Shown here: positions 11,056 to 53,619 of the stretch, piece by piece | Layout of the letters: every line of letters starts with the position of its first letter | Position numbering within the stretch: position 1 is the stretch's first letter | Assembly: GCA_048213135.1 (NCBI GenBank) | Contig: PS015076.1 | Span: 1 to 54,112 of the forward strand | Direction of reading: 5' to 3' | From: Reclinomonas americana ATCC 50394 | Lineage: Eukaryota | Length of the DNA: 54,112 bases | Made by a program: the position numbers and the translations under genes | The notes under the pieces: model-generated | Databases searched by the model: none | What the model was told of the DNA's origin: nothing | What the model saw: only the letters and a program-made list of their open reading frames with translations

Positions 11056-11092
<37 letters not shown>

Positions 11093-11112
11093 NNNNNNNN
11101 NNNNNNNNNNNN

Positions 11113-11185
<73 letters not shown>

Positions 11186-12510: not shown

Positions 12511-12562
<52 letters not shown>

Positions 12563-20012: not shown

Positions 20013-21298
20013 ATGCACGAATCCCTGCACATCCCCTGCGCCTCGGCCGCCCACCTCTGCATCGCCCCCCGGACCCTCTCTCCCCCTCTTATCATTGTCG
20101 CCGGCAACGACGAAGACGGCTGCATATTCGTATTTGATGGCGACAGTGGCCACCGATTGCACACTGAAAGGGACGCGCACCCGGGAGGCACCTATCGCGT
20201 GCACTATGACAGCGGGAAGCTGGCCTCGTGCGGATTCGATTGTTGTGTCGCACTGTGGAGTATTATCATTGACGAGGAGGAGAAGTCGTGTTTGCGACAA
20301 GAGTGGCGCTCGACTGGTTGGTGTGACTACATTCAGGGCCTGACGATGACGCACCGGCCGTTGTATGTGTTTGCCACGGCGGAGACCACGGAGATTCATG
20401 TGTATTCTGTGCAAGGAGGGGAGAAGGTGCGCGTGCAGCACGGCCACTCGCAGCACGTGAATGCGTTGGCGGTGTCGTCGTGCGATCGCGTGCTTGTCAG
20501 CGCCTCGGATGATCACAGTATGCGCACGTGGAGTGTGGAGACTGGCGCACAGTTGTGGGTGTTTCATTTTGACTCGGCTGTGCACTCGGTGGCGCTGCGG
20601 GGGACGTTGGCGGCCTGTGGCATGTGGCATGGCTGCGTGCTGGTGATTGATCTGAGCACGCACATCGAGCGACTGGTGGGCGTGCCCGACAGGGATACCT
20701 GGTGCGGCGTGTATGGCACCGCGTTTGCGGAGAAGGAGTTGCCGATTGTTGTTGCCACGACGCATGGTTCGCGCCACAGAGAGAGAAGAGAGAGATACAG
20801 CAAGACAGAGAGACAGCTCAGCTGCATTCCAGTGCCCTCCTCGCGTTGTTGCTCAACGCATGCGCGCAGATGGCTTGGTGCAAGTGTGGAACGTGGATAC
20901 GCTCCGCTTGGTGGCCAGCGACGATGCCAGCCGCGATGGTGTGCCTCAGCCCCTGTGGAGTCCAGTGATTCTCGCCGACGGTCGTCTGGCCGTCTGTCAA
21001 CTTGCGCATGGCGTGCGTGTGTTTGCGCCAGGTGAGTGTGTGGGTGGGCGCACGTAGTGCACTGCGTGTGCCACGCACCTGCTTATTGCGGAATGCAGGT
21101 CCGTGGAGCAAGCGGTGGTGTCTGGAGCAGGAGGTGGTGGCGGCGCGCGAGGCTGTGGTCGCGTTGCGGGAGGCAGAGGCGGAAAAGGAGGAGGTGGGCG
21201 AACCGCTGCCGTTGCTCGTGCTCCGCTGTTTCATGGTGGAGGAGGCGGAGGCGAATCTGTGGCGAGGAGGCGGCGTCGTTGTCGTCGTGACAGGGTGA
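20013..21298 (+). CDS. Divergent WD40-repeat protein with the shared C-terminal LRCF.VE tail; 3 exons (introns about 20767-20868 and 21032-21098); start uncertain
   Basis: LASCGFDCCVALW, GHSQHVNALAV...LVSASDDHSMRTWSV, TTH|DGLVQVWNV; tail AREAVVALRE...PLPLLVLRCFMVEEAEANLWR. Confidence 0.8.
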
Positions 21299-29585: not shown

Positions 29586-29942
29586 CCGATCTCTCTCGGA
29601 TTGTCGGCACCCTCGCACGACTTGAGGAGGTGTGTTCAGACGAGTGCAGTCGTGTGTCGTTGTTTGTGTCTCTTGAGTGTTTGGAGAAGATTGCACGTGG
29701 TACTTGGTGCACGGTTTGTGCTTGGTGGTGTTTGGCTCGCGGCATTGAGGGACTGCATTCCTTTCGATATTCTTGCACTGCACACAGCCACAGTGATCCT
29801 ACATGCTCACTCGCATTTGATTGCCATGCAGGTCCAGTGGTGGCGGTGGTGGTGCGCTCTTGAAACGAAGTACAAGACCACAATTGCTCTCCGAAATTTT
29901 GACTGTAGGCAAGCGTGGTTCTCCCGGTTTCCTTGCCTCACG

Positions 29943-30365
29943 ATGAACGCAGCATCTGCTTCGGCGTCACGCACGAACCAGTCGCACACCCAACGACACC
30001 GACGACGACGACGACGGAGCGGCACTGCGAAGGATGATTCTCACTCATCAACGACCGCGACACCCACTTCTCACCCCGAGAGTGCCACTGCGCCGAAGGA
30101 GTCTGCATTGCTCAGTTCATCAGCGGCAGGTGGTAGCCGTGCAACTTCTCGCAGACGGCGTGCAACGCACCACTTTCGTGTGCCTCGCGGATCTGGGGTC
30201 GATGATGACGAAGTGATGTGTCGCCTGCAACACTGGCTCGAGACAGACGGCCGGGCCACCGAGCAACAGGCGGATCGCACTTTTGTTGTGCGGCGGACCA
30301 CGATTGGTGCGTTTGTGTGTTGTGTGCAGATCATCGTGGTGAGGCAGTCACTTTTTTGTTTACAC

Positions 30366-30408
<43 letters not shown>

Positions 30409-31150
30409 CACAGGCAAGCCACCGCCGTTGAAGAAGTGGCGACAAAAGTGGTCGGAGGCGGTCGCGCAGAATGGCGGCCGTGCAGTGGATCCCCGTGAGT
30501 TGTTGCGAGGCAGCCGGTGTGCGGAGATGGATGGGCAGATGTTGATCGCTGCCGATCTTGCCGAGTACGAAGAGCGAGGTGCCGGTGGCGCGATTGATTC
30601 GCAACTGTTTTCAGCCGCCCTCTGTCACCTGCAACAGTCGCTGGCCAAGTGCGTGGTCGACGGCACTGCTGTCTCTGTGGAAACTGTGCCACCTCCGCGT
30701 GTGCTGCCGAGGAAGAGAGGCGACCCATATCGAGAACGAGTGTGTCTTCGAGTGTGGGTGGGGCCAGCGGCGGATCGAGTCGCTGTGTGTGAGACGATTC
30801 TGGCGGCTCGGCAACCGGATGGTGTGACGTGGATCGTGCTATGCTGTCCACCGGAGGATGCGGTATTCTATGGCTTGCCGAGCTACAAGCCGCGCAAGTT
30901 CGCCTTCGAATGGGCCACGCCAGAATGGGTCATTACCGAGTACAACGTCGACAACTTGGACTTGGACAACCTGCTGGCAGACCCCTCTGTCGGCGCGACG
31001 TGCAATCCAGCCGATTTCGGCTGCAAACCTATGACAGACGCCCAGCTGATTGCTGCAGGTGTGAAATGCGCTAAGCTGCGCAAGTTCCTCTGCGTGAACT
31101 TTCCCGTCGCCGACGGTGCTGGCGCGGAATGTGGGCGCTCGCGTGACTGA
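29943..31150 (+). CDS. Array gene copy 2; exons 29943-30306 and 30414-31150
   Basis: Same structure with an open frame. Confidence 0.75.
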
Positions 31151-31515
31151 CCGATCTCTCTCGGTTTGTCGGCACTCCATCACGACTTGAGGAGGTGTGT
31201 TCAGACGAGTGGAGTCTATGTCGTTGTTTGTGTCTCTTGAGTGTTTGGAGAAGATTGTACGTCTCTTGCTGCTTGTTGCACGGTTTGTACTTGGTTGTGT
31301 TTGGCTCGAGGCATTGAGGGACTGCATTTCTATCGATAACATGTGTTGCACTGCACACGGCAGCAGTGATCTTACGTGCTCACTCATCTTTGATTGTCAT
31401 GCAGGTCCAGCGTTGGCGGTGGTGGTGCGCTCTTGAAACGAAGTACAAGATCGCATTTGCTCTCCGAAATTTTGACTGTAGGCGGGCGTGGTTCTCCCGG
31501 TTTCCTTGCCTCACG

Positions 31516-32668
31516 ATGAACGCAGCATCTGCTTCGGCGTCATGCACGAACCAGTCGCGCGTCCAGCGACGACGACGACGACGACGACGAAGCGGCACTG
31601 CGGAGGATGATTCTCATTCATCAACAACTACGACACTCACCTCTCCCCCCGAGAATGCCACTGCGCCGAAGGAGTCTGCATTGCTCAGTCCATCTGCGGC
31701 AGCTGGCAGCCGTGCGACCTCTCGCAGACGGCGTGCAACGCCCCACTTTCGTGTGCCTCATGGATCTGGGGTCGATGATGACGAAGTGATGCGTCGCCTG
31801 CAACACTGGCTCGAGACAGACGGCCGGGCCACCGAGCAACAGGCGGATCGCACTTTTGTTGTGCGGCGGACCACGATTGGTGCGTTTGTGTGATGTGTGA
31901 AGATCATCGTGGTGTGACAGTCACTTTTTGTTTACACAAGTGGCCTCTCTTTCTCTCTCGCTGCACAGGCAAGCCACCGCCGTTGAAGAAGTGGCGACAA
32001 AAGTGGCCGGAGGCTGTCGCGCAGAATGGCGGCCGTGCAGTGGATCCACGCGAGTTGTTGCGAGGCAGCCGATGTGCGGAGATGGATGGGCAGATTTTGG
32101 TCGCACTTGCCAAGGAGCACGTCACCGGCGTGATCAAGCCAGAACAGTTTTCAGCCGGCCTCTGTCACCTGCAACAGTCGCTGGCCAAGTGCGTGGTCGA
32201 CGGCACTGCGGTGTCTGTGGACACTGTGCCTCTTCCGCGCGTGCTGCCGAAGAAGAAGGGCGACCCGCATCGTGAACGAGTGTGTCTGCGAGTGTGGGTG
32301 GGATCAGCAGTGGATCGAATCTCTATGTGCAAGACGATTGTGGCGGCCACTCCGCCTGAGGGTGTGTTTTGGATGGTGCTGTGCTGCCCACCGGAGGATG
32401 CGGTGTTTTTTGCTTGCCCAGCTACGAGCCGTGCAAGTTCTCCTATCATTGGGCCGCACCAGAATGGGTTATCGACGCGTATGACTTCGACAACATTGAC
32501 TTGGATATCTTGCTGGCAGACCCCTCTGTCGGCGCGACATACGATCCTGCCTTATTCGGCTGCGAACCATTGACCGACGCCCAGCTGATAGCTGCAGGTG
32601 TGAAATGTCCTCTGTTGCGCAAGTTCCTCTGCACGGACTCCGTCGTCGCCGACGGCGTTGGCGACTGA
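31516..32668 (+). pseudogene. Array gene copy 3, frameshifted near 32405-32413 (real or homopolymer error), with a shortened 3' end
   Basis: GTGTTTTTTGCTTGCCC versus TTC TAT GGC TTG / TTT TTT GGC CTG in other copies; the homologous protein continues in ORF 32369-32668. Confidence 0.6.
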
Positions 32669-33023
32669 CCGATCTCTCTCGGTTTGTCGGCAATCCATCA
32701 CGACTTGAGGAGGTGTGTTTTGACGAGTGAGTTCTGTGTCATTGTTTGTGTCTCGTGAGTGTTTGGAGAAGATTGCACGTGGTACTTGGTGCACGGTTTG
32801 TGCTTGGTGGTGTTTTGTTCGAGGCATTGAGGAACTGCATTTCTATTGATATTCTTTGCATGTTGCACTGCACACAGCAACAGTGATCATACAGCTCACT
32901 CATCTTTGACTGCCATGCAGGTCCAGCTGGTGGTGCGCTCGTGAAACGAAGTACAAGATCACATTTGCTCTCCGAAATTTTGACTGTAGGCAAGCGTGGT
33001 TCTCCCGGTTTCCTTGCCTCACG

Positions 33024-34964
33024 ATGAACGCAGCATCTGCTTCGGCGTCACGCACGAACCAGTCGCACACCCAGCGACACCGACGACGACGACGACGCAG
33101 CGGCACTGCGGAGGATGATTCTCACTCATCAACGACCGCGACACCCACCTCTCTCCCCGAGAGTGCCACTGTGTCGAAGGAGTCTGCATTGCTCAGTTCA
33201 TCAGCGGCAGCTGGCAGCCGTGCGACCTCTCGCAGACGGCGTGCAACGCCCCACTTTCGTGTGCCTCGCGGATCTGGGGTTGATGATGACGAAGTGATGT
33301 GTCGCCTGCAACACTGGCTCGAGACAGACGGCCGGGCCACCGAGCAACAGGCGGATCACACGTTTGTTGTGCGGCGGACCACGATTGGTGCGTTTGTGTG
33401 ATGTGTGAAGATCATCGTGGTGTGGCAGTCACTTTTTTGTTTACACAAGTGGTCTCCCTCTCTCTCTCTCTCTCTCTCTTCTCTCGTCNNNNNNNNNNNN
33501 NNNNNNNNNNNNNNNNNNNNNNNNNNNNNNNNNNNNNNNNNNNNNNNNNNNNNNNNNNNNNNNNNNNNNNNNNNNNNNNNNNNNNNNNNNNNNNNNNNNN
33601 NNNNNNNNNNNNNNNNNNNNNNNNNNNNNNNNNNNNNNNNNNNNNNNNNNNNNNNNNNNNNNNNNNNNNNNNNNNNNNNNNNNNNNNNNNNNNNNNNNNN
33701 NNNNNNNNNNNNNNNNNNNNNNNNNNNNNNNNNNNNNNNNNNNNNNNNNNNNNNNNNNNNNNNNNNNNNNNNNNNNNNNNNNNNNNNNNNNNNNNNNNNN
33801 NNNNNNNNNNNNNNNNNNNNNNNNNNNNNNNNNNNNNNNNNNNNNNNNNNNNNNNNNNNNNNNNNNNNNNNNNNNNNNNNNNNNNNNNNNNNNNNNNNNN
33901 NNNNNNNNNNNNNNNNNNNNNNNNNNNNNNNNNNNNNNNNNNNNNNNNNNNNNNNNNNNNNNNNNNNNNNNNNNNNNNNNNNNNNNNNNNNNNNNNNNNN
34001 NNNNNNNNNNNNNNNNNNNNNNNNNNNNNNNNNNNNNNNNNNNNNNNNNNNNNNNNNNNNNNNNNNNNNNNNNNNNNNNNNNNNNNNNNNNNNNNNNNNN
34101 NNNNNNNNNNNNNNNNNNNNNNNNNNNNNNNNNNNNNNNNNNNNNNNNNNNNNNNNNNNNNNNNNNNNNNNNNNNNNNNNNNNNNNNNNNNNNNNNNNNN
34201 NNNNNNNNNNNNNNNNNNNNNNNNNNNNNNNNNNNNNNNNNNNNNNNNNNNNNNNNNNNNNNNNNNNNNNNNNNNNNNNNNNNNNNNNNNNNNNNNNNNN
34301 NNNNNNNNNNNNNNNNNNNNNNNNNNNNNNNNNNNNNGGCAGCCGGTGTGCAGAGATGGATGCGCAGATTTTGGTCGCGCTTGCCCATGAGCGAATCACC
34401 GGCGTGATCGAGCCGCAACAGTTTTCAGCCGGTCTCTGTCACCTGCAACAGTCGCTGGCCAAGTGCGTTGTCGACGGCACTGCGGTGTCTGTGGAGACTG
34501 TGCCTCTTCTGCGTGTGCTGCCGAGGAAGAGACGCGACCCGCATCGAGAACGAGTGTGTCTGCGAGTGTGGGTGGGGCCAGCGGCGAATCGAGTCGCTGT
34601 GTGTGAGACGATTGTGGCGGCCACTCCGCCTGAGGGTGTGTTGTGGATGGTGCTGTGCTGTCCGCCGGAGGATGCGGTGTTCTATGGCTTGCCGAGCTAC
34701 AAGCCGCGCAAGTTGAGAATTGAATGGGCCGCACCGGAATGGGCCATTACCGAGTACAACGTCGACAACTTCGACTTTGACAACTTCCTGGCAGATCCCT
34801 CTATCGGCGCGACATACGATCCAGCCTTGTTCGGCTCCAAACGTTTTCCAGACGCCCAGCCGATATCTGCAGACGTGAAGAGCGCTCATCTGCACGAGCT
34901 CATCTGCACGGACTCTGGCGTCGCCGACGGCGTTGGCGCGGAATGTGGGCGCTTGCATGACTGA
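33024..34964 (+). CDS. Array gene copy 4 (spans gap 33489-34337); divergent SAM-like tail
   Basis: Exon 1 lies before the gap and GSRCAEMD...GRLHD* after it; the two halves may come from different copies. Confidence 0.65.
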
Positions 34965-35327
34965 TCGATCTCTCTCGGTTTGTCGGCACCCTCGCACGAC
35001 TTGAGGAGGTGTGTTTTGACGAGTGGAGTTTTGTGTCGTTGTTTGTGTCTCTTGAGTGTTTGGAGAAGATTGTACGTCTCTTGCTGCTTGTTGCACGGTT
35101 TGTACTTGGTTGTGTTTGGCTCGAGGCATTGAGGGACTGCATTTCTATCGATAACATGTGTTGCACTGCACACGGCAGCAGTGATCTTACGTGCTCACTC
35201 ATCTTTGATTGTCATGCAGGTCCAGCGTTGGCGGTGGTGGTGCGCTCTTGAAACGAAGTACAAGATCACATTTGCTCTCCGAAATTTTGACTGTAGGCGG
35301 GCGTGGTGCTCCCGGCTTCCTTGCCTC

Positions 35328-37212
35328 ATGATGAGCACAGCGTCTGCTTCCGTGTCGCGCACTCACCAGTCGCACGCCCAACGACACCGACGACGACGAC
35401 GACGACGACGGAGCGGCACTGCGAAGGATGATTCTCACTCAGCAACAACCACGACACCCACTTCTCACCCCGAGAATGCCACTGCGCCGAAGGAGTCTGC
35501 ATTGCTCAGTCCATCTGCGGCAGCTGGCAGCCGTGCGATCTCTCGCAGACGGCGTGCGAAACCCCATTTTCGTGTGCCTCGCGGATCTGGGGTCGATGAT
35601 GACGAAGTACTGCGTCGCCTGCAACACTGGCTCGAGACTGACGGCCGGGCCACTGAGCAACAGGCGGATCACACCTTTGTTGTGCGGCGGACCACGATTG
35701 GTGCGTTTGTGTGATGTGTGAAGATCATCGTGCTGTGGCAGTCACTTTTGGTTTACACAAGTGGCTCTCTCTCTCTCTCNNNNNNNNNNNNNNNNNNNNN
35801 NNNNNNNNNNNNNNNNNNNNNNNNNNNNNNNNNNNNNNNNNNNNNNNNNNNNNNNNNNNNNNNNNNNNNNNNNNNNNNNNNNNNNNNNNNNNNNNNNNNN
35901 NNNNNNNNNNNNNNNNNNNNNNNNNNNNNNNNNNNNNNNNNNNNNNNNNNNNNNNNNNNNNNNNNNNNNNNNNNNNNNNNNNNNNNNNNNNNNNNNNNNN
36001 NNNNNNNNNNNNNNNNNNNNNNNNNNNNNNNNNNNNNNNNNNNNNNNNNNNNNNNNNNNNNNNNNNNNNNNNNNNNNNNNNNNNNNNNNNNNNNNNNNNN
36101 NNNNNNNNNNNNNNNNNNNNNNNNNNNNNNNNNNNNNNNNNNNNNNNNNNNNNNNNNNNNNNNNNNNNNNNNNNNNNNNNNNNNNNNNNNNNNNNNNNNN
36201 NNNNNNNNNNNNNNNNNNNNNNNNNNNNNNNNNNNNNNNNNNNNNNNNNNNNNNNNNNNNNNNNNNNNNNNNNNNNNNNNNNNNNNNNNNNNNNNNNNNN
36301 NNNNNNNNNNNNNNNNNNNNNNNNNNNNNNNNNNNNNNNNNNNNNNNNNNNNNNNNNNNNNNNNNNNNNNNNNNNNNNNNNNNNNNNNNNNNNNNNNNNN
36401 NNNNNNNNNNNNNNNNNNNNNNNNNNNNNNNNNNNNNNNNNNNNNNNNNNNTCTCTCTCTCTCTCTCTCTCTGCACAGGCAAGCCACCGCCGTTGAAGAA
36501 GTGGCGACAAAAGTGGCCACAAGCGGTCGCGCAGAATGGCGGCCGTGCAGTGGATCCACGCGAGTTGTTGCGAGGCAGCCGGTGTGTGGAGATGGATGGG
36601 CAGATGCTGATCGCCCCCGATCTTGCCGAGTTCGAAGTGCGAGGTGCCGGTGGCGCGATCGATTCGCAACTGTTTTCAGCCGCCCTCTGTCGCCTGCACC
36701 AGTCGCTGGCCAAGTGCGTGCTCGGCGGCACTGCGGTGTCTGTGGAGACGGTGCCACCTCCGCGCATTCCGATCGACAAGGGCGACCCGTATCGAACACG
36801 ATCTTGTTTGCGAGTGTGGGTGGGATCAGATACGGATCGAGTCGCTGTGTGCGAGACGATTTTGGCTGCCATGCAGCCTGATGGTGTGACGTGGATGTTG
36901 CTGTGCTGTCCACCGGAGGATGCGGTGTTTTTTGGCCTGCCCAACTACAGGCCACGCAGGTTGAGCCTGGAATGGGCCACACCAGATTCGGTCATCGACA
37001 GCTATAAATTCGACAACTTCGACTTTGACAAGGTGCTGGCAGACCCCTCTGTCGGCTCGACGTACGATCCAGCCTTCTTCGGCTGCGAACCATTGACCGA
37101 CGCCCAGCTGATAGCTCTTGGTGTGAAATGTCCTCTGTTGCGCAAGTTCCTCCGCTCGGACTCTGGCGTCGCCGACGGCGCTGGCGCGGAATGTGGGCGC
37201 TCGCGTGACTGA
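35328..37212 (+). CDS. Array gene copy 5 (gap within the intron)
   Basis: Both exons open; most divergent core (RIPIDKGDPYRTRSCLRVWVG). Confidence 0.7.
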
Positions 37213-37571
37213 CCGATCTCTCTCGGATTGTCGGCACTCCATCACGACTTGAGGAGGTGTGTTCAGACGAGTGGAGTCTATGTCGTTGTTTGTGTCTCTT
37301 GAGTGTTTGACGATGACTGCACGTCTCTCGCTGCTTGTTGCGCGGTTTGTGCTTGGTTGTATTTGGTTGGAGACTACATTCCTTTCGATATTCTTTGCAT
37401 GTCGCACTGCACACAGCCACAGTGATCTTACATGCTCACTCATCTTTGACTGCCATGCAGGTCCAGCGTTGGCGGTGGTGTTGCGCTCTTGAAACGAAGT
37501 ACAAGATCACATTTGCTCTCCGAAATTTTGACTGTAGGCGGGCGTGGTGCTCCCAGTTTCCTTGCCTCACG

Positions 37572-38782
37572 ATGAGCGCAGCGTCTGCTTCCGCGTCGCG
37601 CACTCGCCAGTCGCACACCCAGCGACACCGACGACGACGACGACAGAGCGGCACTGCGGAGGATGATTCTCATTCATCTACGACCGCGACGCTCACCTCT
37701 CTCCCCGAGAGTGCCACTGCGCCGAAGGAGTCTGCATTGCTCAGTTCATCAGCGGCAGCTGGCAGCCGTGCGACTTCTCGCAGACGGCGTGCAACGCCCC
37801 ACTTTCGTGTGCCTCGCGGATCCGGGGTCGATGATGACGAAGTGATGCGTCGCCTGCAACACTGGCTTGAGGCTGACGGCCGGGCAACCGAGCAACAGGC
37901 GGATCACACCTTTGTTGTGCGGCGGACCACGATTGGTGCGTTTGTGTGCTGTGTGAAGATCATCGTGGTATGGCAGTCACCTTTGGTTTACACAAGTGGC
38001 CTCTCTCTTCCTCCCTCCCTCTCTCCCTCCCTCCCTCTCACTGCACAGGCAAGCCACCGCCGTTGAAGAAGTGGCGACAAAAGTGGCCGGAGGCGGTCGC
38101 GCAGAATGGCGGCCGTGCAGTGGATCCACGCGAGTTGTTGCGAGGCAGCCGGTGTGCGGAGATGGATGGGCAGATGCTGATCGCCCCCGATCTTGCCGAG
38201 TACGAAGTGCGAGGTGCCGGTGGTGCGATTGATTCGCAACAGTTTTCAGCCGCCCTCTGTCACCTGCAACAGTCGCTGGCCAAGTGCGTGGTCGACGGCA
38301 CTGCAGAGTCTGTGGAGACTGTGCCTCTTCCGCGCGTGCTGCCGAGGAAGAGAGGCGACCCATATCGAGAACGAGTGTGTCTTCGAGTGTGGGTGGGGCC
38401 AGCGGCGGATCGAGTCGCTGTGTGTGAGACGATTCTGGCGGCCCGGCAACCGGATGGTGTGACGTGGATCGTGCTATGCTGTCCACCGGAGGATGCGGTA
38501 TTCTATGGCCTGCCCAGCTACAAGCCGCGCAAGTTCGCCTTCGAATGGGCCACGCCAGAATGGGTCATTACCGAGTACAACGTCGACAACTTGGACTTGG
38601 ACAACCTGCTGGCAGACCCCTCTGTCGGCGCGACATACGATCCAGCCTTATTCGGCTCCAAACGTTTTCCAGACGCCCAGACGATATCTGCAGACGTGAA
38701 GAGCGCTCAGCTGTGTAAGGTCCTCTGCGATTCTGGCGTCGCCGACGGCGCTGGCGCGGAATGTGGGCGCTCGCGTGACTGA
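37572..38782 (+). CDS. Array gene copy 6; divergent SAM-like tail
   Basis: Both exons open; core like copy 2, tail like copy 4. Confidence 0.75.
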
Positions 38783-40151
38783 CCGATCTCTCTCGGATTG
38801 TCGGCAGTCCATCACGACTTCAGGAGGTGTGTTTTGACGATTGAAGTTTTGTGTCGTTGTTTGTGTCTCTTGAGTGTTTGGAGAAGATTGCACGTCTCTT
38901 GCGGTGCACGGTTTGTACTTGGTTGTGTTTGGCTCGAGGCATTGAGGGACTGCATTTCTATCGATAACATGTGTTGCACTGCACACAGCCACAGTGATCC
39001 TACATGCTCACTCATCTTTGACTGCCATGCAGGTCCAGCGTTGGCGGTGGTGGTGCGCTCTTGAAACGAAGTAGGCACAAGATCGCACTTGCTCCGACGT
39101 TTGAGCTCGATAACAGCGGCAACTTCGTCAGTTTGCCTTCAACAGGCCATTGCACCTCGCACTTTCCCTTGCTCGCACTTTACTCTCTTACCTGCATCAG
39201 AGACGCACTATTTTAGAACGTGCAACACGTGTTAACATGTTGTCCCGCTTTCGTCCTCAAACCGAGCGATTTCGGTGTTGTNNNNNNNNNNNNNNNNNNN
39301 NNNNNNNNNNNNNNNNNNNNNNNNNNNNNNNNNNNNNNNNNNNNNNNNNNNNNNNNNNNNNNNNNNNNNNNNNNNNNNNNNNNNNNNNNNNNNNNNNNNN
39401 NNNNNNNNNNNNNNNNNNNNNNNNNNNNNNNNNNNNNNNNNNNNNNNNNNNNNNNNNNNNNNNNNNNNNNNNNNNNNNNNNNNNNNNNNNNNNNNNNNNN
39501 NNNNNNNNNNNNNNNNNNNNNNNNNNNNNNNNNNNNNNNNNNNNNNNNNNNNNNNNNNNNNNNNNNNNNNNNNNNNNNNNNNNNNNNNNNNNNNNNNNNN
39601 NNNNNNNNNNNNNNNNNNNNNNNNNNNNNNNNNNNNNNNNNNNNNNNNNNNNNNNNNNNNNNNNNNNNNNNNNNNNNNNNNNNNNNNNNNNNNNNNNNNN
39701 NNNNNNNNNNNNNNNNNNNNNNNNNNNNNNNNNNNNNNNNNNNNNNNNNNNNNNNNNNNNNNNNNNNNNNNNNNNNNNNNNNNNNNNNNNNNNNNNNNNN
39801 NNNNNNNNNNNNNNNNNNNNNNNNNNNNNNNNNNNNNNNNNNNNNNNNNNNNNNNNNNNNNNNNTGGGTGCCAGCTCGCCGGCCGCCTCGTCGGCGTCAG
39901 CAGGACCACATCATTCGTCGGCCTCGGCGGCGCCCATTAGCGGCGAGCCATAACAGGAGGCAACACAGAGAGTGAGAGGAAAAAAGTGAGGCCTCGTCTC
40001 GCCTTGCTTCTCTTGCTCTCTTTTTAGTTTCTCCCCTCCTCCTCCTCTCCTTCAATTTCTTCTATACATTCACGAATAAGCGTGGCGCGGATGTCGCTCA
40101 TCCATGCGCGCATTATAAAGACAGACAGGATCATATCAAACATAGAGAGAA

Positions 40152-44425: not shown

Positions 44426-44743
44426 TTGTATGCGAAAAAAAACACTCACAAGTAGTAAAAAAATTGCGAAAAATTCTCACGCGACGTTCCTCTTACTACG
44501 GGTTTCTGCACAGCAGCTGTGTGTACAAGAGTGTGCTTACAAAGTACATAAGCACGACGATCAATTGTGAAACAGAGCACAGGTGGAAACAAGCTTGCAT
44601 GTTGCGAAGTCGATTGATATCGATCGCGATATCGTAAATGGCCATGGCTTGCACCATGAGTGCGCTCTCACAGCTTGCAGTCTCCACCAAGGAACGACGT
44701 CCCGACAAGACAAGGCAACAGGACGCACTTGTCTTAAGCTTTC

Positions 44744-45799
44744 ATGCAACGATTCCGCGGTCACACCGACCGGATTGTATCGCTGGCTGTGACCCGCGAC
44801 GAGCAGTTCATTGTCACAGGCAGCCACGACGCGACTGTGCGTGTGTGGTTGCTGGCAAGTGGCGAGCAACTGCACTGCTTGTGTGGTCACACGGATCGCG
44901 TGCAGGCAGTGGCACTGACACCGAGTGATCGGCATGTGGTGTCGGGCAGTGCGGATGCCACGGTGCGAGTGTGGTCGCTGAAGAGTGGGACGGAGGTGCG
45001 TCGACTGGAGGGCCACACTGGCGTTGTGAGTGGTGTGGCGGTGACCACTGATGGCACGTGCGCGGTGTCGAGCAGTGACGACTGCACGGTGCGAGTGTGG
45101 GCGCTGAAGAGTGGCAAGGAGGTGCGTCGGTTTGCGGGTCACACGGCTGCTGTGACGTGTGTGGCGGTGTGCCCCGACGGGCAGCACGTGGTCACGGGGA
45201 GTGAGGACAAGACGGTGCGCGTGTGGTCACTGGCGAGTGGCGAGGAGATGCGGCTGTTGACTGGCTGTCAAGGCACCGTGCGCTCAGTGGCGGTGTCGCC
45301 CGACGGGCAATTCGTGGTCTCTGGCGATATCTACCAGGTGGTGCGCATGTGGTCGCTGGCCACCGGGCAGCAGCTGCACTGCATGAGCGAGCATCTGGCG
45401 ATGGTGTGCTCGGTGGCGGTGACCGCCGACAGCATGTTCATTGTGTCGTGCTCGTGGGACGGCACAGTGCAGGTGTGGTCGGCGGCCAGTGGACACCGAG
45501 TGCTGCGGCTGGTGAATGACAGAGGCGGAGTGCTCTCAGTGGCCACGACACGCACCGGTCGCTATATTGTCGCTGGCGTCGTCGTCGACAGTTGCGTGCG
45601 CCTGTGGCCGACGCACTACGGTCTCGCGTGCGAAGAACTGCAGTGCGCCGAGGCCGCCCTGGAGGCGGTGCACGAACTCCAGCAACGCCAGCGTGCCGCC
45701 AAGCACCCGCGATGCCTGGTGGAGATTGCACTGCGCTGCTTCATTGTCGAGGACGCGCAGGTTATCGCCCATCGATATGCCAGTGTGCCGATGTTCTGA
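44744..45799 (+). CDS. Intronless WD40 protein (7 similar repeats) with the LRCF.VEDA tail
   Basis: 351-aa ORF with GH..V..VAV.PDG..VVSGS.D.TVRVWSL repeats; tail HPRCLVEIALRCFIVEDAQVIAHRY. Confidence 0.92.
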   Translation: MQRFRGHTDRIVSLAVTRDEQFIVTGSHDATVRVWLLASGEQLHCLCGHTDRVQAVALTPSDRHVVSGSADATVRVWSLKSGTEVRRLEGHTGVVSGVAVTTDGTCAVSSSDDCTVRVWALKSGKEVRRFAGHTAAVTCVAVCPDGQHVVTGSEDKTVRVWSLASGEEMRLLTGCQGTVRSVAVSPDGQFVVSGDIYQVVRMWSLATGQQLHCMSEHLAMVCSVAVTADSMFIVSCSWDGTVQVWSAASGHRVLRLVNDRGGVLSVATTRTGRYIVAGVVVDSCVRLWPTHYGLACEELQCAEAALEAVHELQQRQRAAKHPRCLVEIALRCFIVEDAQVIAHRYASVPMF

Positions 45800-45923
45800 C
45801 CACAACACGAGCATTCGCGGTGGTTTCTCTTGCAGAAACGCTAGCGTTTGGCATGGACTTCAGCGCGCTGCAGCTGTGTTGCTGTTTGGACAACAACAGC
45901 TCATTCAGATCATTCATAAAGCA

Positions 45924-46002
45924 ACAGCTGTCTTGATGACCAAGTCCAACCATATCCAAAACATCAACACAAACACCAGTCTTGAGGGCAGCAGCAGGTT
46001 TC
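45924..46002 (+). repeat. About 80-bp dispersed repeat, inverted copy of 22009-22089
   Basis: Direct sequence comparison. Confidence 0.9.
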
Positions 46003-46257
46003 TTTGGTGTGTGTTTTGCTCTCATGTGAACAAGTCGCGATCGAGAACTGCAATCTTGAAGTTTGTACATGTTGTTGTTGCATTCGCGACGTCGCAAGGC
46101 ACACAAGTTCATGGTTCATCTGCACGGCATGCACCTGCTGCCCCACTGACACCCTTGAATGGGCTTTCATGCATGCGACGTCCATTTCTCCGATGTCCTC
46201 TTCGTCTTCTCCCCTTCGTTCCACCTTCCCTTCTCCCTTTCCCTCCCCGCGCACCCC

Positions 46258-47249
46258 ATGGAATCCGAGTACCTTCGCTCTCTCTTCTCGCTCACTGGCA
46301 AACGCGCGGTGGTGACGGGCGGTGGCAAGGGCGTGGGCGCCATGATCGCCCGCGGACTTGCACACGCCGGCTGCGCGCGCGTCTACGTGTGCTCCCGCGA
46401 TGCAGCCTCGTGCGAGGCCTTTGCCAAGGAAATCAACGCCGAGAAAGGGTGCGTCTCACAGAAAGAAAGAGAATGCAGACTCTCACTCACTCACACTCTG
46501 TCAATGTGCAGTGTGGCCAAGGACTGTGTGGTGGGCTTGGAGGCCAACCTGAGCGACGAGGCCGGCTGCAAGGCGTTTGTGAGCACACTGCGCAGCAAGT
46601 ACAACGAGACTGCATTGCACATTTTGGTCAACAACTCGGGGGCGAACTGGGGCTCCACCATTGAGGAGTACCCCGAGTCGGCGTGGGATAAGGTGATGGC
46701 GTTGAACGTGAAGGGAGTGTTCATGCTGACGCGACTGCTGCTGCCGCTGCTGGAGGAGGCGAGTCAGGAGAAGGACGCACAGGGGGCCACGGGATACGAG
46801 AGCGGCTGTTCACCGGCGCGCGTAATCAACATTGGCAGCGTGCAGGGCGAGGTGCCGCCGATGTTGGAGACGTATGCGTACAGTGCAAGCAAGGCCGCGG
46901 TGCATCACTTGACGAGAGTGCTGGCGTCGCAGCTGGCGCGTCGTCACGTGACGGTCAATGCGTTGGCACTTGGGCCGTTCGAGTCCAAGATGATGGCGGT
47001 GTGTCATCCTCGTTCGTTGCTCCGGCATCTCGCTCTCTCTGCTGTGCTCGTCTCATCATCGCTGGCGGCGCGCAGGCCACGTTGAAGCGATACAAGGACA
47101 CGATTGTGCAAAACATCCCTCTCGGTCGTATCGGATCGCCCGACGATGTCGCCGGTGTGTGCACCTACCTGTGCTCTCGCGCTGGCGAGTATGTCAGCGG
47201 TGCGATCATTCCTGTCGAGGGCGCCTACATGGTGCAAGCGAAGCTGTGA
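46258..47249 (+). CDS. Classical short-chain dehydrogenase/reductase, RhlG-like; 3 exons
   Basis: LFSLTGKRAVVTGGGKGVG, ILVNNSGANWG, RVINIGSVQG, YAYSASKAAVHHLT, VNALALGPFESKM, IPLGRIGSPDDVAG. Confidence 0.92.
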
Positions 47250-47338
47250 CGCGACCAAGTGTACACGAAACGCTCGTCCACTATGTACATTTCTTGCGAG
47301 ACACAGAGCGATCCAGTCAGTGCGTGTGGTGGCGCCGA

Positions 47339-47907
47339 CTACGCCTCCACATCGCCACGAGTGAGCAAGTCCCCGAACTCGGGGTGCGACGGCATGAACT
47401 GGTGGTGCGCACAAAGACAAGAGAATGGTCAGTCAGTCAAGATTCCACTCTGGCGGCGGCACCATGACTGACCTTGTCGCGAATGTACGTGCTGTGCCAG
47501 CCACACACCACGCAACAGCGCGCATTGTTAATCACGCAGCAGAGGGGAAGGGGGGCGGTGAGACTCACCAGGTGACGACGATCTTCTGCCATCCGGCCGC
47601 CTGGAAGTATCGCACTCCAGCCTAACAAACACAGTCATCCAACAGAATCTCTCTCTCTCCCTTCTTCCCCTCTTCAACCTGCAGCTTACCTCGACAAGGA
47701 AGTCGGCCAGGCCCTGCCCACGAAACTCCGAATCGACCTCCACGTGTGACAGCTCGACAAACTTCTCCTGCCCGGCGCGATCGTGCGAGACGAACTGCAG
47801 GTGGCCGATCACACGCCCGCCCTCCCCAGCCACGCGCACAAGCATGCGTTCCGCGTGCGACACGGGGATTGGTTGCTCACCTGATACGTGAGATCGATGA
47901 GCATGAG

Positions 47908-47949
<42 letters not shown>

Positions 47950-48033
47950 GCTCGCACACACACCAAGGCGCAGCTCCAGGCTCTGTGCGTTCGAGCTCTC
48001 TTGCACCCAGCAGCGGTCGAGAATGCCACTCAT
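47339..48033 (-). CDS. Small GNAT protein of the NATD1/YjdJ (Acetyltransf_CG) type; multi-exon; start uncertain
   Basis: ELSHVEVDSEFRGQGLADFLVE|AGVRYF...KIVVT|.TYIRDK|FMPSHPEF. Confidence 0.8.
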
Positions 48034-48188
48034 CGTGTCTATTGCTCACAGGTGGCGCGGAAAGTGAAGGGTGGTGGTGTCGATCGATGAAATGACTTTG
48101 GTTCACTACACTTTGTCTCGTTTCTCCGGCCGTGTAAGACATGAAGTTTAATCTGCAGCAAGAGCAATCTTTATGCGCAACAGCGGAA

Positions 48189-49271
48189 TCACAGACAGTG
48201 GGCGCTAGAGCAGCATCGGAACAGCACCGCCCCCGCATCCTCGACGATGAAGCAGCGGAGCACCATCTCTGGCAGGCAGCGTGGATCATCCTCTGCCTCT
48301 TCCACCTGTGGCAGCATCTCCTGAACAGCCTGCATGGCCTGCCGTGCACAGTCGACATCAATGTGCGCGAGGCCACACACCGTCGACCACACGCGCACAG
48401 TTCCATTGTCTTCACAGCTGACAATGTGCTGTCCATTGGGAGTGATGGCGAGGGAGTTCACGCCCCCGTTGTGCCCCTCCAACCTTTGCACCTCCTCTCC
48501 ACTGACCACCGACCATATTCGCACTGTCGCATCGTCGCCACCACTCACCACATGCCGACCGTCGGGAGTGGAGGTGACAGACCACACTCCAACAGTGTGT
48601 CCCACCAGTTGTCGCACCTCCTCTCCACTCGCCAGTGACCACATGCGAATGGTTTCGGTGAAGCCACTGCTCACAATGTGCAGACCATCACGAGTGACGG
48701 CGACTGACCACAACATTCTTCCGTTTCCCTCGAGCCGTCGCACTTCCTCGCCTGTTGCAAGCGACCACACTCGCACGGTCTTGTCGTCGCTGCCACTCAC
48801 AACGTGCCGACCATCGGGAGTGACAGCCACCGATGCCACGGATTGAGCGTGTCCCTCCAACCGTCGCAGTTCTTCGCCACTCGCTAACGACCACACTCGT
48901 ACTGTCTTGTCATCGCCACAACTCACGATATACTGACCATCGGGGGTGACGGCGACAGACCTCACTTCTCCAGTATGTCCCTCCAACTGCCGCACTTCTT
49001 CTCCACTTGCCAGCGACCACACCCGCACTGTTTCGTCGTCACTCCCACTCACAACGTGCTCGCCGTCGGGAGTGACGGCCACGGTGCTCACCCCACGCGT
49101 GTGTCCATCCAACAATCGCACCTCTTTGCCACTCGCCAGTGACCACACGCGCACTGTGTTATCCTCATGGCCACTCACAATGTGCTGGCCGTCTGGTGAA
49201 ATGGCGACGGAGTACACTTCCCCAGGTGTTTGGATGCACAGACTGGAGAAGAGTGGCGCAGTGGAGGCCAT
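48189..49271 (-). CDS. Intronless WD40 protein (7 repeats) with the LRCF.VEDA tail
   Basis: 42-aa repeats; tail DPRCLPEMVLRCFIVEDAGAVLFRC; MASTAPLF taken as the start. Confidence 0.92.
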   Translation of the reverse strand: MASTAPLFSSLCIQTPGEVYSVAISPDGQHIVSGHEDNTVRVWSLASGKEVRLLDGHTRGVSTVAVTPDGEHVVSGSDDETVRVWSLASGEEVRQLEGHTGEVRSVAVTPDGQYIVSCGDDKTVRVWSLASGEELRRLEGHAQSVASVAVTPDGRHVVSGSDDKTVRVWSLATGEEVRRLEGNGRMLWSVAVTRDGLHIVSSGFTETIRMWSLASGEEVRQLVGHTVGVWSVTSTPDGRHVVSGGDDATVRIWSVVSGEEVQRLEGHNGGVNSLAITPNGQHIVSCEDNGTVRVWSTVCGLAHIDVDCARQAMQAVQEMLPQVEEAEDDPRCLPEMVLRCFIVEDAGAVLFRCCSSAHCL

Positions 49272-49621
49272 GCTGGGTGGAAGAAGGTGAGGGCGAGAGA
49301 GAAACGAAGAGGATGCGTGGTGCGCGCTTGCGAAGTGTCTGTGTGTGCGTGTGTGATTGGGACGAAGGGACGTCATCAGAAGTCTCCTCTCCTGGCTGCC
49401 ATTCTCGTCTGTGCTATCGCCGCTGCACCTTCTTTCGAGCAGATTCTCCTTTACCCACTGGCTTGCATTTCACAGGAACGCTGTCCACCTTCAAAGTCAA
49501 ATGTCGGTAGTCACGATATCGAAGTGACGACACTTCACTCTCCCCAAGCAACAATGTACTGCACGCACACACAACAAAAGAACTCTAGCACACTGACTCC
49601 AACAGCATCCCCACTCAAACA

Positions 49622-50695
49622 TTAAAGATGCAGGGCAGGATCAACACTGCACCGGAACAGCACCGCCTCTGCATCCTCGACGACGAAGCAGCGCAGCACC
49701 ATCTCCGGCAAGCAGCGTTCCTCTTTCACTTCCTGCATCTCCTGAACCGCCAACATGGCCAGGCGTGCTTGATCAAGTTCAATGCGAGCAAGGCCGCACG
49801 GCGTGGACCACACGCGCACTGTCTCATCAACGCTCCCACTTACGATGTGTTGGCCATCGAAGGTGATGGCGACGGAGCGCACCCATCCATTGTGCCCATC
49901 CAGTCGCCGCACTTCCTCTCCGCTCGTCAATGACCACACCCGCACTGACTCGTCATAACTCCCGCTCACCACATGCTGGCCATCGCGAGTGACGGCGACG
50001 GAGCGCACGTACGAGAGACAAGTGTGTCCCTTTAGCTGTCGGACTTCTTCGCCACTGGACATAGACAACACTCGCACATTTTCGCCAACACCTCCGCTCA
50101 CAATGTGCTGACTATCGGGAGCGACAGCCAGAGACCACACAGCACCAGTGCATCCGGTGAAGAGTCGCACCAGCTCTCCACTCGCCACAGACCACAGTCG
50201 CACAGTCTTATCCTCACTGCCGCTCACAACAAACTGACCGTCGGGAGTGCCGGCAACAGACGTCACCGTGTCGGTGTGTCCCTCCAGCAGTCGCTCTTCT
50301 TCTCCACTCGCCATTGACCATATTCGCACGGTGGTATCACCAAAGCTACCACCGCTCACAATGTGCTGGCCATCGCAAGTGACTGCCACGCATCGCACGT
50401 AGCTAGTGTGTCCCTCCAGTTGTCGCACTTCTTCTCCACTCGCCAGGGACCACACCCGCACCGTCATGTCATGGCCACCACTCACCACGTGCTGACCGTC
50501 GGGAGTGACGGTGACGGAGAGCGCCTTTTCTGCATGTCCCTTCAATCGTCGCACCTCCTCTCCAGTCACCAGTGACCACACGCGCATAGTGCTGTCCTCA
50601 TTGCTGCTCACAGCATGCTGGCCGTCGGGAGTGACGGCGACAGCATACACCTTCCCAGGCGCCTTGATGCGCAGCCTGCAGAAGAAGAAAGGCAT
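49622..50695 (-). CDS. Intronless WD40 protein (7 repeats) with the LRCF.VEDA tail
   Basis: 357-aa ORF; tail ERCLPEMVLRCFVVEDAEAVLFRC. Confidence 0.92.
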   Translation of the reverse strand: MPFFFCRLRIKAPGKVYAVAVTPDGQHAVSSNEDSTMRVWSLVTGEEVRRLKGHAEKALSVTVTPDGQHVVSGGHDMTVRVWSLASGEEVRQLEGHTSYVRCVAVTCDGQHIVSGGSFGDTTVRIWSMASGEEERLLEGHTDTVTSVAGTPDGQFVVSGSEDKTVRLWSVASGELVRLFTGCTGAVWSLAVAPDSQHIVSGGVGENVRVLSMSSGEEVRQLKGHTCLSYVRSVAVTRDGQHVVSGSYDESVRVWSLTSGEEVRRLDGHNGWVRSVAITFDGQHIVSGSVDETVRVWSTPCGLARIELDQARLAMLAVQEMQEVKEERCLPEMVLRCFVVEDAEAVLFRCSVDPALHL

Positions 50696-50981
50696 GAAGA
50701 GGGAGGCTATGAGAGATGGAGGATGGTGGAGGAAGAAACGAAGGGGATGGATGGTGTGCGCTGCGCGTTCTGCGAGGCGTGTGTGTGTGAGGAGGACGAA
50801 GGGACGTCAACAAAAGTTTCCTCGTCCTTGTCGTCTCTGCTGGAGTCGACACTGCTGACTTGGAAAGGTAATGACGTCCACCTTCAACACCAAACGTCAA
50901 CACGGAAGACGCTGCATCATGGCCATAGTACACTTCTGCTTCAAGAAAAACAAAGCGACAGAACATCTCTGGCACCAAACT

Positions 50982-51899
50982 TCACAGATGCAGGGCGGGA
51001 TCAGCACGGCACCGGAACAGCACCGCCTCGGCGTCCTCGACAATGAAGCAGCGCAGCACCATCTCCGACAGGCAGCGCTCCTCTTTCGCCTCCTGCATCT
51101 CCTGAACTGCGTGCATGGCCAGGCGCGCTTGCTCCACGTCGATCAGCGCGAGCCCACACGGCGTCGACCACACGCACACCGTGGTATCCTCGCTCCCACT
51201 GACCACGTGCTGACCATTGGGAGTGACGGCGACAGACCACACGCAGTTGCAGTGCCCCTCCAACCTCTGCACCTCCGCACCACTCGCCATCGACCACACC
51301 CGCACCGTCGCATCATCGCCACCACTCACCGCATGTCGCCCATCAGGAGTGACCACAACAGATCGCACTCCCCCATCGTGACCCTCCATCCGCCACACCT
51401 CCTCACCACCTCCCAGCGACCACACCCGCACCGTGCCATCATTACTGCCACTGACAATGCGCTGACCGTCGGGCGTGACAACAATCGCCGTCACCCAACT
51501 ACTGTGCCCCAACATTCGTCGCACCTCCTTCCCACCTGCCAACAACCACACTCGCACCGTGTTATCCACACCGCCGGTCACCGCATGCCGCCCATCGGGT
51601 GAAAACGCGACCACTTGCACAGCGCCGTTATGTCCGCGCAACTGTAACCGTCGCACGCCCTTGTCACTTGCCGCCGACTTTTCCCGCACTGCCTTGGCGT
51701 TACTGTGCAGATCGTCGGCGACAACAACAATCGGCGGCAACAACTCATCTCCGCCGCCGCCGCCGACCTCATCTCCGCTTGCCACTGACCACACTTGTGT
51801 GGTGCGATACTCACCGCCGCTGACGATGCGCGCACCGTCAGCTGTCACGACGACTGTAAACACACGCTCTTGCGCTTGCAACACGCGACACACGAACAT
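50982..51899 (-). CDS. WD40 protein (5 repeats plus an insertion) with the LRCF.VEDA tail
   Basis: ORF 50982-51959, first ATG at 51899; tail ERCLSEMVLRCFIVEDAEAVLFRC. Confidence 0.88.
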   Translation of the reverse strand: MFVCRVLQAQERVFTVVVTADGARIVSGGEYRTTQVWSVASGDEVGGGGGDELLPPIVVVADDLHSNAKAVREKSAASDKGVRRLQLRGHNGAVQVVAFSPDGRHAVTGGVDNTVRVWLLAGGKEVRRMLGHSSWVTAIVVTPDGQRIVSGSNDGTVRVWSLGGGEEVWRMEGHDGGVRSVVVTPDGRHAVSGGDDATVRVWSMASGAEVQRLEGHCNCVWSVAVTPNGQHVVSGSEDTTVCVWSTPCGLALIDVEQARLAMHAVQEMQEAKEERCLSEMVLRCFIVEDAEAVLFRCRADPALHL

Positions 51900-51973
51900 T
51901 GAAGAAGTCCAACAAGGACAGTTGCAGGCTCGCGCGGCCGAACCTCTGTCCACTTTCACATCACACTTTCATA

Positions 51974-53619
51974 ATGGAGCAAGGTGCGTTGCCTTCCTCA
52001 TGCACACGCTCCTCCACTGCGCACACGTGTGCATGCACCACTCTCTTGTCGCGCACAATCATTCCCTTTCATTTGTTGTCACAAAGGTGGACATTTCTGT
52101 GACCATGTCTCTCACTCTTTTCTTTCTCTTTGTTTGTGTGTGTGCGCAGACGTTGCACACCGTTTGCCGACTTTCGAGACTCGCGCGGAGATCGAGTGCG
52201 GACTCGCGCAGCAAAGTCTGGAGGGTCTCGATGTGAGCTCATTGAATCCGTTGTCGCCGCAAGTCATTTCGCGACAGGCAACTATCAACATTGGTGAGTG
52301 CCTGTGTGCACACATAGAGCATACGTGTGTGTGTGAGAGAGAGAGAGAGAGTGCAATTCTATCATGGGATTCATTTTCGGGTGCATTTTGTGTTGTACTT
52401 GTTGGGGCGTGTGCGAGACTCACAAATGGCCTTGTGTTTTTTGCTTTTCAGGCACGATTGGTCATGTGGCGCACGGCAAGTCGACTGTGGTGAAGAGCAT
52501 CTCGGGCGTGCAGACTGTGCGCTTCAAGAACGAGATTCGTCGTAACATTACCATCAAGCTCGGCTACGCCAACGCCAAGATCTATCAGTGCCCGACGTGC
52601 CCGGCGCCGCAGTGCTTCCAGGCCTACGGCTCATCGACCGCCGATCGCAAGGAGTGCCGTCACTGCAACACGCCGATGGCGCTCATGCGTCACGTCTCGT
52701 TTGTCGACTGCCCCGGTCACGATATTCTCATGGCCACCATGCTCAACGGTGCCGCGGTCATGGACGCTGCGCTGCTGCTGATTGCCGCCAATGAGCCATG
52801 TCCGCAGCCGCAGACGGCCGAGCATTTGGCCGCCGTCGACATTATGCAGCTGAAGCATTTGATCATTCTGCAGNNNNNNNNNNNNNNNNNNNNNNNNNNN
52901 NNNNNNNNNNNNNNNNNNNNNNNNNNNNNNNNNNNNNNNNNNNNNNNNNNNNNNNNAACAAGATTGATTTGGTGCGCGAGTCTGCCGCCAAGGAGGTACG
53001 TTGTTGCTCTCTCTCTCTTTCTCCTTTTGATGGCCTCGCACCTCCCCCGTTTCCTCATTTTGTCGCCGACCAGCAATTCCGCGCCATCCGTGCCTTCATC
53101 AACGGCACAAATGCCGAGGGCAGCCCCATCATCCCCATCAGTGCACAGCTCGGCTTCAACGTCGACGCACTGCTGGAGTACATGGTCCGCACGATTCCGG
53201 TGCCGCAGCGGAATTTCGTGACGCGGCCGCGCATGATTGTGATTCGTTCGTTCGACGTCAACAAGGCCGGCACAGAGGTGGCCGGACTGAAGGGCGGCGT
53301 CGCCGGTGGCAGTATCATTGAGGGCGTGTTGAGGGTTCGTCTCTCGGTCGAGGACAAGTCACCGTCTCTCTTATTAGTTGGATGATGTACTCATGTGTTG
53401 GTGTGGGCGGGCGAGCAGAAGGGACAAGACATCGAGGTCAGACCGGGCATTGTGTCGCGCATGGACGACGGCCGACAGAAGTGCACACCGATCCGAACAC
53501 GCATCACATCACTGTACGCCGAGGAGAACGAGTTGCAGTTTGCCGTACCCGGTGGTCTCATTGGTGTCGGCACCAAGATTGATCCCACGCTGACGCGCCA
53601 GGATCGACTTGTTGGGCAG
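51974..53619 (+). CDS. EIF2S3: Translation initiation factor 2 gamma; continues beyond the window
   Basis: MEQ|D..., [105 protein letters not shown]. Confidence 0.97.

Follow-up and report, generated by a model that had tools for sequence, protein, structure and literature searches.

A lineage-restricted C-terminal tail on WD40 propeller proteins of the jakobid Reclinomonas americana

WD40 genes and their common tail

The DNA analyzed here is a stretch of 54,112 nucleotides from Reclinomonas americana ATCC 50394 (assembly GCA_048213135.1, contig PS015076.1), the whole of which is called the window in the following. It contains five genes for WD40 propeller proteins, all of which close with a common tail of about 60 amino acids (aa) with an invariant L-R-C-F and an invariant E. 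The tail is a genuine, lineage-restricted module, predicted to be a helix-loop-helix, for which no named domain was found; the published literature was checked by a motif search in the supplementary files of one paper (PMC8134430). An earlier inspection of the DNA without database searches, the sequence-only reading, had described the end of these proteins by the motif A..A(V/M).A(V/L).E...L(P/S/V)..(V/A)LRCF(I/V/M)VE(D/E)A, and this motif holds in all five copies of the window. The same reading had placed the five genes, and all of them were found at or near these positions by open reading frames (ORFs), Pfam matches and splicing.

The sequence of the window is a eukaryotic draft that is interrupted by 16 runs of N; its GC content is about 41-61% (2-kb bins away from N gaps), and its introns are short and of the GT..AG type. 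Four of the genes (A-D) are intronless ORFs within 44744-51959, and the fifth, the divergent gene E at 20013-21298, has three exons (Table 1). The Pfam family PF00400 matched A-D with 157-253 bits in 4-7 stretches each and exon 1 of gene E with 37.7 bits, at a cut-off of 27. Many other propeller families also matched A-D, and beta-propeller families were the only ones to do so; neither a NACHT/NB-ARC nor an effector domain was found in A-D with Pfam. The proteins encoded by A-D start at the first blade and are stand-alone propellers with a tail. A hidden Markov model (HMM) of the repeat unit confined the WD units of the window to the five loci.

Three of the genes have individual features. The reading frame of gene E changes twice, and both shifts are accounted for by canonical introns. 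The spliced gene encodes an in-frame protein of 371 aa, and the junction VVATTHDGLVQVWNV reads as a normal WD repeat. The ORF of gene D opens at GTG, and its earliest ATG is at position 51899. A glycine-rich degenerate stretch replaces blade 2 of gene D, and its tail is still 83% identical to that of C; gene D may be a copy in decay or a variant with six blades. For gene B, translation probably starts at M36 (position 49271), as the initial ~100 nt of the ORF can be aligned with a non-coding block upstream of gene C. In B, this block begins with an ATG, which lengthens the ORF by 35 codons. The block common to B and C contains TGACGTCCCTTCGTCC, CACACAC, and CTTCGTTTCT, and it does not occur at gene D. 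It is probably a 5′ untranslated region or a promoter.

Table 1. Positions of the WD40 genes, their tails and the common upstream block in the window
Feature	Position	Strand	Evidence
Gene A: WD40 propeller, 351 aa, 7 units, with tail	44744..45799	+	ORF; PF00400 E=2e-61; repeat-unit HMM
Gene B: WD40 propeller, 7 units, with tail; ORF of 395 aa	48189..49376	-	ORF; PF00400 E=1.6e-77; repeat-unit HMM
Gene C: WD40 propeller, 357 aa, 7 units, with tail; copy modelled whole	49622..50695	-	ORF; Pfam; repeat-unit HMM; AlphaFold2
Gene D: WD40 with tail, 5 recognisable units and one degenerate stretch	50982..51959	-	PF00400 E=3.5e-47, 4 stretches; repeat-unit HMM
Gene E, exon 1: most blades of a divergent WD40 propeller	20013..20766	+	Frame 1 ORF; WD40 Pfam matches; GT at 20767
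Gene E, intron 1	20767-20869	+	GT..AG, 103 nt
Gene E, exon 2: last blades (THDGLVQVWNV spans the junction)	20870..21031	+	ORF; splice sites
Gene E, intron 2	21032-21098	+	GTGAGT..CAG, 67 nt
Gene E, exon 3: essentially the tail alone, with stop codon	21099..21298	+	HMM of four tails E=1.5e-8; splice sites
Tail of A, 62 aa	45611..45796	+	Alignments; tail HMM E=1.5e-34
Tail of B, 64 aa; copy folded alone	48192..48383	-	AlphaFold2 pLDDT 84
Tail of C, 60 aa	49625..49804	-	Helices 299-321 and 329-351 in the model
Tail of D, 60 aa	50985..51164	-	Alignment; tail HMM
Upstream block of ~100 nt, B copy	49377..49480, continuing downstream into the ORF (to 49272)	-	Alignment with region upstream of C
Upstream block of ~100 nt, C copy	~50696-50800	-	Alignment with B copy

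Distribution and conservation of the tail

The distribution of the tail was analyzed with profiles. An HMM built exclusively from the tails of A-D recognized the E tail when the six-frame translation of the window was searched, and it also detected three relatives outside the window (E=1.3e-26, 3.5e-12, and 1.1e-10). After inclusion of the E tail, no further six-frame piece of the window scored better than E=2. According to the tail HMM and the repeat-unit HMM, all five WD40 genes of the window thus carry the tail, and no other part of the window does. A search of 1.84 billion representative proteins with the five-tail profile (HMMER) yielded five matches with E<=0.001, three of which were judged to be true relatives. 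These three, P0001 (116 aa), P0002 (381 aa), and P0003 (394 aa), each consist of a beta-propeller followed by the tail. P0001 is a protein of the jakobid R. americana in EukProt that was derived from an expressed sequence tag, and therefore at least one member of the family is transcribed. The other two matches, P0004 (733 aa) and P0005 (111 aa), turned out to be spurious, as both are repetitive and only a stretch of ~10-16 residues matched repeatedly. The repeated motifs are 'SEMVLRQFTG' and 'MTLRCSIVE' in P0004 and P0005, respectively; they reached E<=0.001 by repetition alone, which calls for caution with tail HMMs.

A word-index search of 5.8 billion proteins with an alignment of the eight tails, directed at longer proteins, retrieved only P0002 and P0003 among the best 8000 candidates, which were scored. 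With the tail region of B and proteins of similar length, the same kind of search gave 15 candidates and no relative. Scans for the DNA pattern gave 36 pattern matches in metagenome contigs, 21 in viral contigs, and 8 in prokaryotic genomes, none of which was confirmed by tblastn. A lineage-specific family had been proposed from the sequence, and the three relatives among 1.84 billion representatives, together with the absence of confirmed matches from the viral, prokaryotic and metagenome sequences, agree with this proposal. In all eight known carriers (the five genes of the window and P0001-P0003), the tail follows a beta-propeller, and it never follows ankyrin, leucine-rich or kelch repeats. 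The last residues vary among the seven proteins compared (PMF, HCL, LHL, LHL, VTG, LWW, and DLR), and by eye this variation does not fit the consensus patterns of a peroxisomal targeting signal of type 1 (PTS1) or a CaaX box, so that both were rejected.

For the analysis of conservation, seven full-length proteins were aligned (A-D, spliced E, P0002, and P0003). In each of the 15 pairs that include E, P0002 or P0003, the tails are more identical than the propellers, with typical values of 25-43% versus 17-27%. Among the six close pairs of A-D, the tail identity is higher for B-C, B-D, and C-D and equal for A-D. Only 15 columns of the alignment are invariant, and eight of them are in the tail, which contributes 53 ungapped columns compared to 215 of the propeller. 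The invariant residues of the tail are A13, L37, L42, R43, C44, F45, E48, and R56 (numbering of the B tail).

Substitution rates were calculated for A-D by the Nei-Gojobori method. The synonymous divergence (dS) is 0.65-2.0, and the ratio of nonsynonymous to synonymous divergence (dN/dS) is 0.19-0.37 for the propeller scaffold and 0.14-0.42 for the tail. Genes A-D are thus under purifying selection, and from the high dS and the low dN/dS it follows that they are old, coding and constrained. These values also bear on another explanation, namely that the common tail has no function of its own and was only carried along when the genes were duplicated recently. B, C, and D are indeed arranged in tandem, and B and C have the upstream DNA in common. 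Nevertheless, the tail has retained its low dN/dS at a dS of 0.65-2 between the copies, and it persists in E, P0002 and P0003, the propellers of which are only 17-27% identical to the others. A duplication by-product is therefore very improbable.

The propellers do not vary uniformly. In an alignment of 26 repeat units, the entropy is near zero at scaffold positions, e.g., V19, W32, and G37, whereas its maxima are found at the three positions that follow GH, at the one behind the next V, and at the x in both SGSxD and DxT. We take the latter positions to be in the loops of the top face of the WD40 propeller. The dN/dS at the variable positions is 0.42-1.39 in five of the six pairs (undefined for B-C, because the proportion of synonymous differences is saturated). 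The paralogues would thus differ most at positions of the predicted ligand face, where ligands would bind. Within the proteins, the repeats have a mean identity of 51% and a maximum of 79% (56 pairs, 23 canonical units). The blades of B and C correspond one to one, and such positional orthology at saturated dS shows that concerted evolution has not occurred.

This behavior can be compared with the WD repeats of fungal NLR proteins (HET-E/NWD). Dyrka et al. (2014, PMC4986451) describe an internal identity of ~85% or more and variation that maps to the interaction face. Those repeats resemble the family described here in their 42-aa units, the invariant scaffold and the variation at a few loop positions. 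They differ in the internal identity, which is 51% here, in their concerted evolution, and in the NACHT/NB-ARC domain that precedes the repeats in the fungal type. A function of the family in defence had been considered by the sequence-only reading, and nothing in the data of the window points to it. Hypervariability and concerted evolution do not characterize these repeats.

Predicted structure of propeller and tail

The protein encoded by gene C was folded with AlphaFold2 (alignment of seven sequences; predicted local distance difference test, pLDDT, 89.5; predicted template modelling score 0.86). According to DSSP, the model comprises 28 strands followed by two helices at residues 299-321 and 329-351. 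In this model, C appears as a complete propeller of seven blades with four strands each, in which the N-terminal residues 5-11 would provide the outer strand of the last blade. As the 28 strands complete the propeller without the tail, the tail would not be part of the propeller fold. The tail folding into the propeller had been named beforehand as the result that would speak against a separate module, and the predicted model of C agrees with a separate tail. In gene E, the tail is encoded by an exon of its own, which begins two residues after the last strand.

The C model was also compared with known structures by VIA-align. The best matches were regular, consensus-like bacterial propellers, namely those of PkwA from Thermomonospora curvata (5yzv_B, Z 49.3) and of a Nostoc protein (2ymu, Z 48.3), with root-mean-square deviations of 1.0-1.2 Å over 287-288 residues and 38% identity (1.0 Å over 288 residues for 5yzv_B). 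Both are like the family in their 42-aa unit and strongly conserved scaffold. All listed alignments of C stop by model residue 302, and those with 5yzv and 2ymu end at residue 297-302, so that the tail has no counterpart there. PkwA carries a kinase at its N-terminus, whereas the family described here consists of propeller and tail only.

The tail of B was also folded alone (eight sequences), which gave a pLDDT of 84, with values of 92-94 for two helices at residues 2-23 and 37-63. The tail had been called helical from its sequence, and the AlphaFold2 prediction makes it a two-helix hairpin, i.e., helix-loop-helix. Within the whole C model, the tail has a pLDDT of only 61-76, which is below the value for the tail alone and would agree with a tail that has no fixed position with respect to the propeller.

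The latter result bears on the possibility that the tail is an intramolecular cap, i.e., that it folds back as a clasp or an autoinhibitory lid onto the bottom or the flank of the propeller to which it belongs and owes its conservation to stability alone. Coronin and other WD40 proteins have C-terminal extensions that are packed against their propellers. The tail follows a propeller in all eight cases, and helix 2 needs a site at which it can be buried, both of which would suit a cap. On the other hand, the propeller in the predicted model lacks no element, as its N-terminal strand closes it, the pLDDT of the tail drops rather than rises in the full-length context, the tail is conserved while the propeller diverges to 17-27% identity, and gene E has a separate exon for the tail. 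We regard an intramolecular cap as not very likely.

The two helices differ in their surfaces. Helix 1 is amphipathic, with a hydrophobic resultant of 0.48 on the helical wheel and a stripe of near-invariant alanines (A..A..A). Helix 2 (L..VLRCF.VE.A...R), which carries the invariant residues, has 12 hydrophobic positions in the segment 37-54, and these are distributed over all faces (resultant 0.04). A hairpin of two helices is insufficient to bury such a helix. The groove of a partner, an oligomeric bundle or the propeller would have to accommodate it, and this consideration is the main basis from which we infer that the tail is a docking element.

The oligomeric bundle would mean that the tail is a self-association module, in which two or more hairpins combine to a bundle of at least four helices and link the paralogous propellers into homo- or hetero-oligomers. 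LisH or coiled-coil segments give self-association in other WD40 proteins. The all-face hydrophobic helix 2 and the alanine stripe of helix 1 would suit the core of a bundle, and the co-located paralogues with their near-identical tails (83% for C and D) could heterodimerise. Furthermore, when the tail fold was compared with 48,161 chains by VIA-align, its best neighbours were antiparallel hairpins of a generic kind as well as designed bundles or oligomers of helices, including a ROP variant and DHD designs (Z 7.3-8.3), although even the best Z of 8.3 is under the level that is informative for helical matches. The invariant charged residues R43, E48 and R56 would fit a foreign partner equally well, and nothing specific was found against self-association. 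A co-fold of two tail copies scored 0.01 compared to a mark of 0.32, but the alignment was not used and the fold of the partner was uncertain, so that this score is evidence neither way. We regard self-association as not very likely.

The searches for a named domain were uniformly negative. No Pfam family matched the eight tails at E<=10, apart from a lone match to Peptidase_M18 with E=0.12 that was taken as chance (the filters of HMMER may discard very weak Pfam matches). A sequence profile search of the PDB gave a best match with E=0.38, followed by NEMO coiled coils with E>1, which were also taken as chance, and no F-box, SOCS or PRANC chain. The ESM Atlas contained no usable match, and none of 135 Foldseek matches had E<=0.001 (best E=0.85, an AcrA hairpin). 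An unnamed domain had been suspected from the sequence, and neither Pfam nor the PDB profile, Foldseek or VIA-align linked the tail to a named one.

The earlier proposal had likened the tail to the F-box, SOCS-box and PRANC domains of cullin ligase adaptors, which leads to a further explanation, namely that the tail is an adaptor box that recruits Skp1, Elongin BC or DDB1 and that the proteins are substrate receptors of E3 ligases, possibly in defence. The layout of a repeat domain followed by a short helical box at the C-terminus is that of known receptors, e.g., WSB1 (WD40 and SOCS box) and the poxviral ANK-PRANC proteins, and the all-hydrophobic helix 2 would fit an insertion mode. However, the sequences do not support such a box. 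None of the eight tails matched F-box, F-box-like (PF00646/PF12937), SOCS_box (PF07525) or PRANC (PF09372) at E<=10, and two long helices are predicted instead of a box of three short ones. F-box chains are also absent from the listed Foldseek and VIA-align matches, an absence that is compatible with an F-box fold. Moreover, PRANC follows ankyrin repeats, whereas all eight carriers of the tail are beta-propellers. In the F-box consensus, helix 1 begins with a conserved L-P, and the sequence-only reading had seen an F-box-like LP motif in the tail. The pattern L-P-x-x-hydrophobic is present in five of the eight tails, and the L is invariant, but the P is not conserved (LV in A and P0003, LS in D).

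If an analogue among ligases is sought, the H-box of DCAF proteins would be a closer architectural parallel than the F-box. In PMC6821201, WDxR is given as the hallmark of DCAFs, and the H-box is described as a helix-loop-helix that adjoins a 7-bladed WD40 propeller and is buried in the cleft of DDB1. The DCAFs of CUL4-DDB1 (DDB2, CSA, and DCAF1) thus have, like the predicted model of the family described here, a helix-loop-helix beside a 7-bladed WD40 domain, which counts in favor of an adaptor box. They differ in that the H-box is N-terminal, whereas the tail is C-terminal, and there is no sequence match. WD.R as well as the relaxed W[DE].[RK] was found in none of the seven family proteins. 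In addition, the window contains no pointer to ubiquitin or to defence, and the SDR and GNAT genes next to the WD40 genes do not encode components of a ligase. In summary, a cullin-RING adaptor box is quite unlikely.

Neighbouring genes and a putative docking function

The WD40 genes are surrounded by genes of other families. An SDR gene (46159-47246, + strand) and an exon of a GNAT gene (within 47531-48457, - strand) are located between A and B, and a gene for eIF2-gamma follows at 52364-53385 (+ strand). Further housekeeping genes encode an SNF2-family ATPase with bromodomain (878-5226, - strand) and a biotin-dependent carboxylase (Biotin_carb_N, CPSase_L_D2, and Biotin_lipoyl; 8968-13394, + strand). 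The eIF2-gamma, SNF2 and carboxylase genes are split by short introns and N gaps. Head to head with gene E, with starts ~280 bp apart, lies a multi-exon gene on the - strand (19272-19769, likely reaching ~17000). Its first exon matches PF09820, 'Predicted AAA-ATPase' (E=2.1e-9), and a promoter shared by the two genes is a possibility. The region 28200-38800 is a tandem array of at least 6-7 copies with a unit of ~1.54-1.57 kb and identities of 88-96%, which is interrupted by N gaps. It contains long ORFs in several frames, and no Pfam family, Rfam family or tRNA matched it. Rfam and tRNA scans of the complete window also found nothing. Long stop-free ORFs, antisense or out of frame to the WD40 genes, are present at 44561-45187 (-), 48141-48846 (+), 50871-51602 (+), and 51475-52236 (+); most likely they are by-products of the GC-rich repetitive coding sequence and not genes.

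WD40 proteins of restricted distribution that includes jakobids have been described before. According to Horváthová et al. (2021, PMC8134430), Gcp1-3 are Pex7-like WD40 proteins that co-occur with the mitochondrial type II secretion system in jakobids and other protists. They are like the present family in being WD40 proteins with a restricted distribution. An identity with Gcp1-3 was rejected, as 'VLRCF' is absent from those 10 of the 11 supplementary files of PMC8134430 that could be searched, some cells of which are incomplete. The shorter 'LRCF' occurs twice in these searchable supplements, in unrelated Naegleria enzymes.

Tentatively, and with somewhat less than even confidence, we propose that the WD40-tail proteins are variable receptors whose constant tail plugs into a common partner. 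According to the models, the tail would be an independent hairpin at the C-terminus of small 7-bladed WD40 propellers and not an element of a blade. Helix 2 would be the part that is buried in another protein, and the tail would thus act as a docking plug. It would tether each of the paralogous propellers to one conserved partner, while the loop positions of the presumed ligand face vary between the paralogues and the tail stays constant. This reading, the best supported of those considered, retains one part of the original proposal of variable receptors with a common plug, as the tail is distinct and conserved and the predicted loops are variable; the part that concerned a cullin ligase was not borne out. 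A cullin-RING adaptor is just one among several possible partners.

Several observations weigh against the docking proposal. The all-hydrophobic helix 2 is explained equally well by self-association or intramolecular packing. The fold predictions rest on shallow alignments of seven and eight sequences, and they are compatible with packing on the own propeller. For A-B and A-C, the identity of the propeller exceeds that of the tail, and the overlapping ranges of dN/dS give no clear sign that, within A-D, the tail is under stronger constraint than the scaffold. The SDR, GNAT, and eIF2-gamma genes in the neighbourhood offer no functional clue.

As a more specific version of docking, the tail might represent a new class of adaptor-docking box, in which the all-hydrophobic helix 2 inserts into a DDB1-, Skp1- or Elongin C-like adaptor or another hub. 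We consider this improbable; if true, it would mean that WD40 substrate receptors of the jakobid lineage arose independently of the F-box, SOCS-box and H-box receptors.

On present evidence, the family is a lineage-specific curiosity without functional link and of moderate importance. The tail is a candidate for a new domain family entry. If it is a docking box, a little-studied deep eukaryotic lineage would possess a small modular family of receptors that combine a variable WD40 face with a constant plug, and the tail, used as bait, would be a handle for finding the hub of this family.

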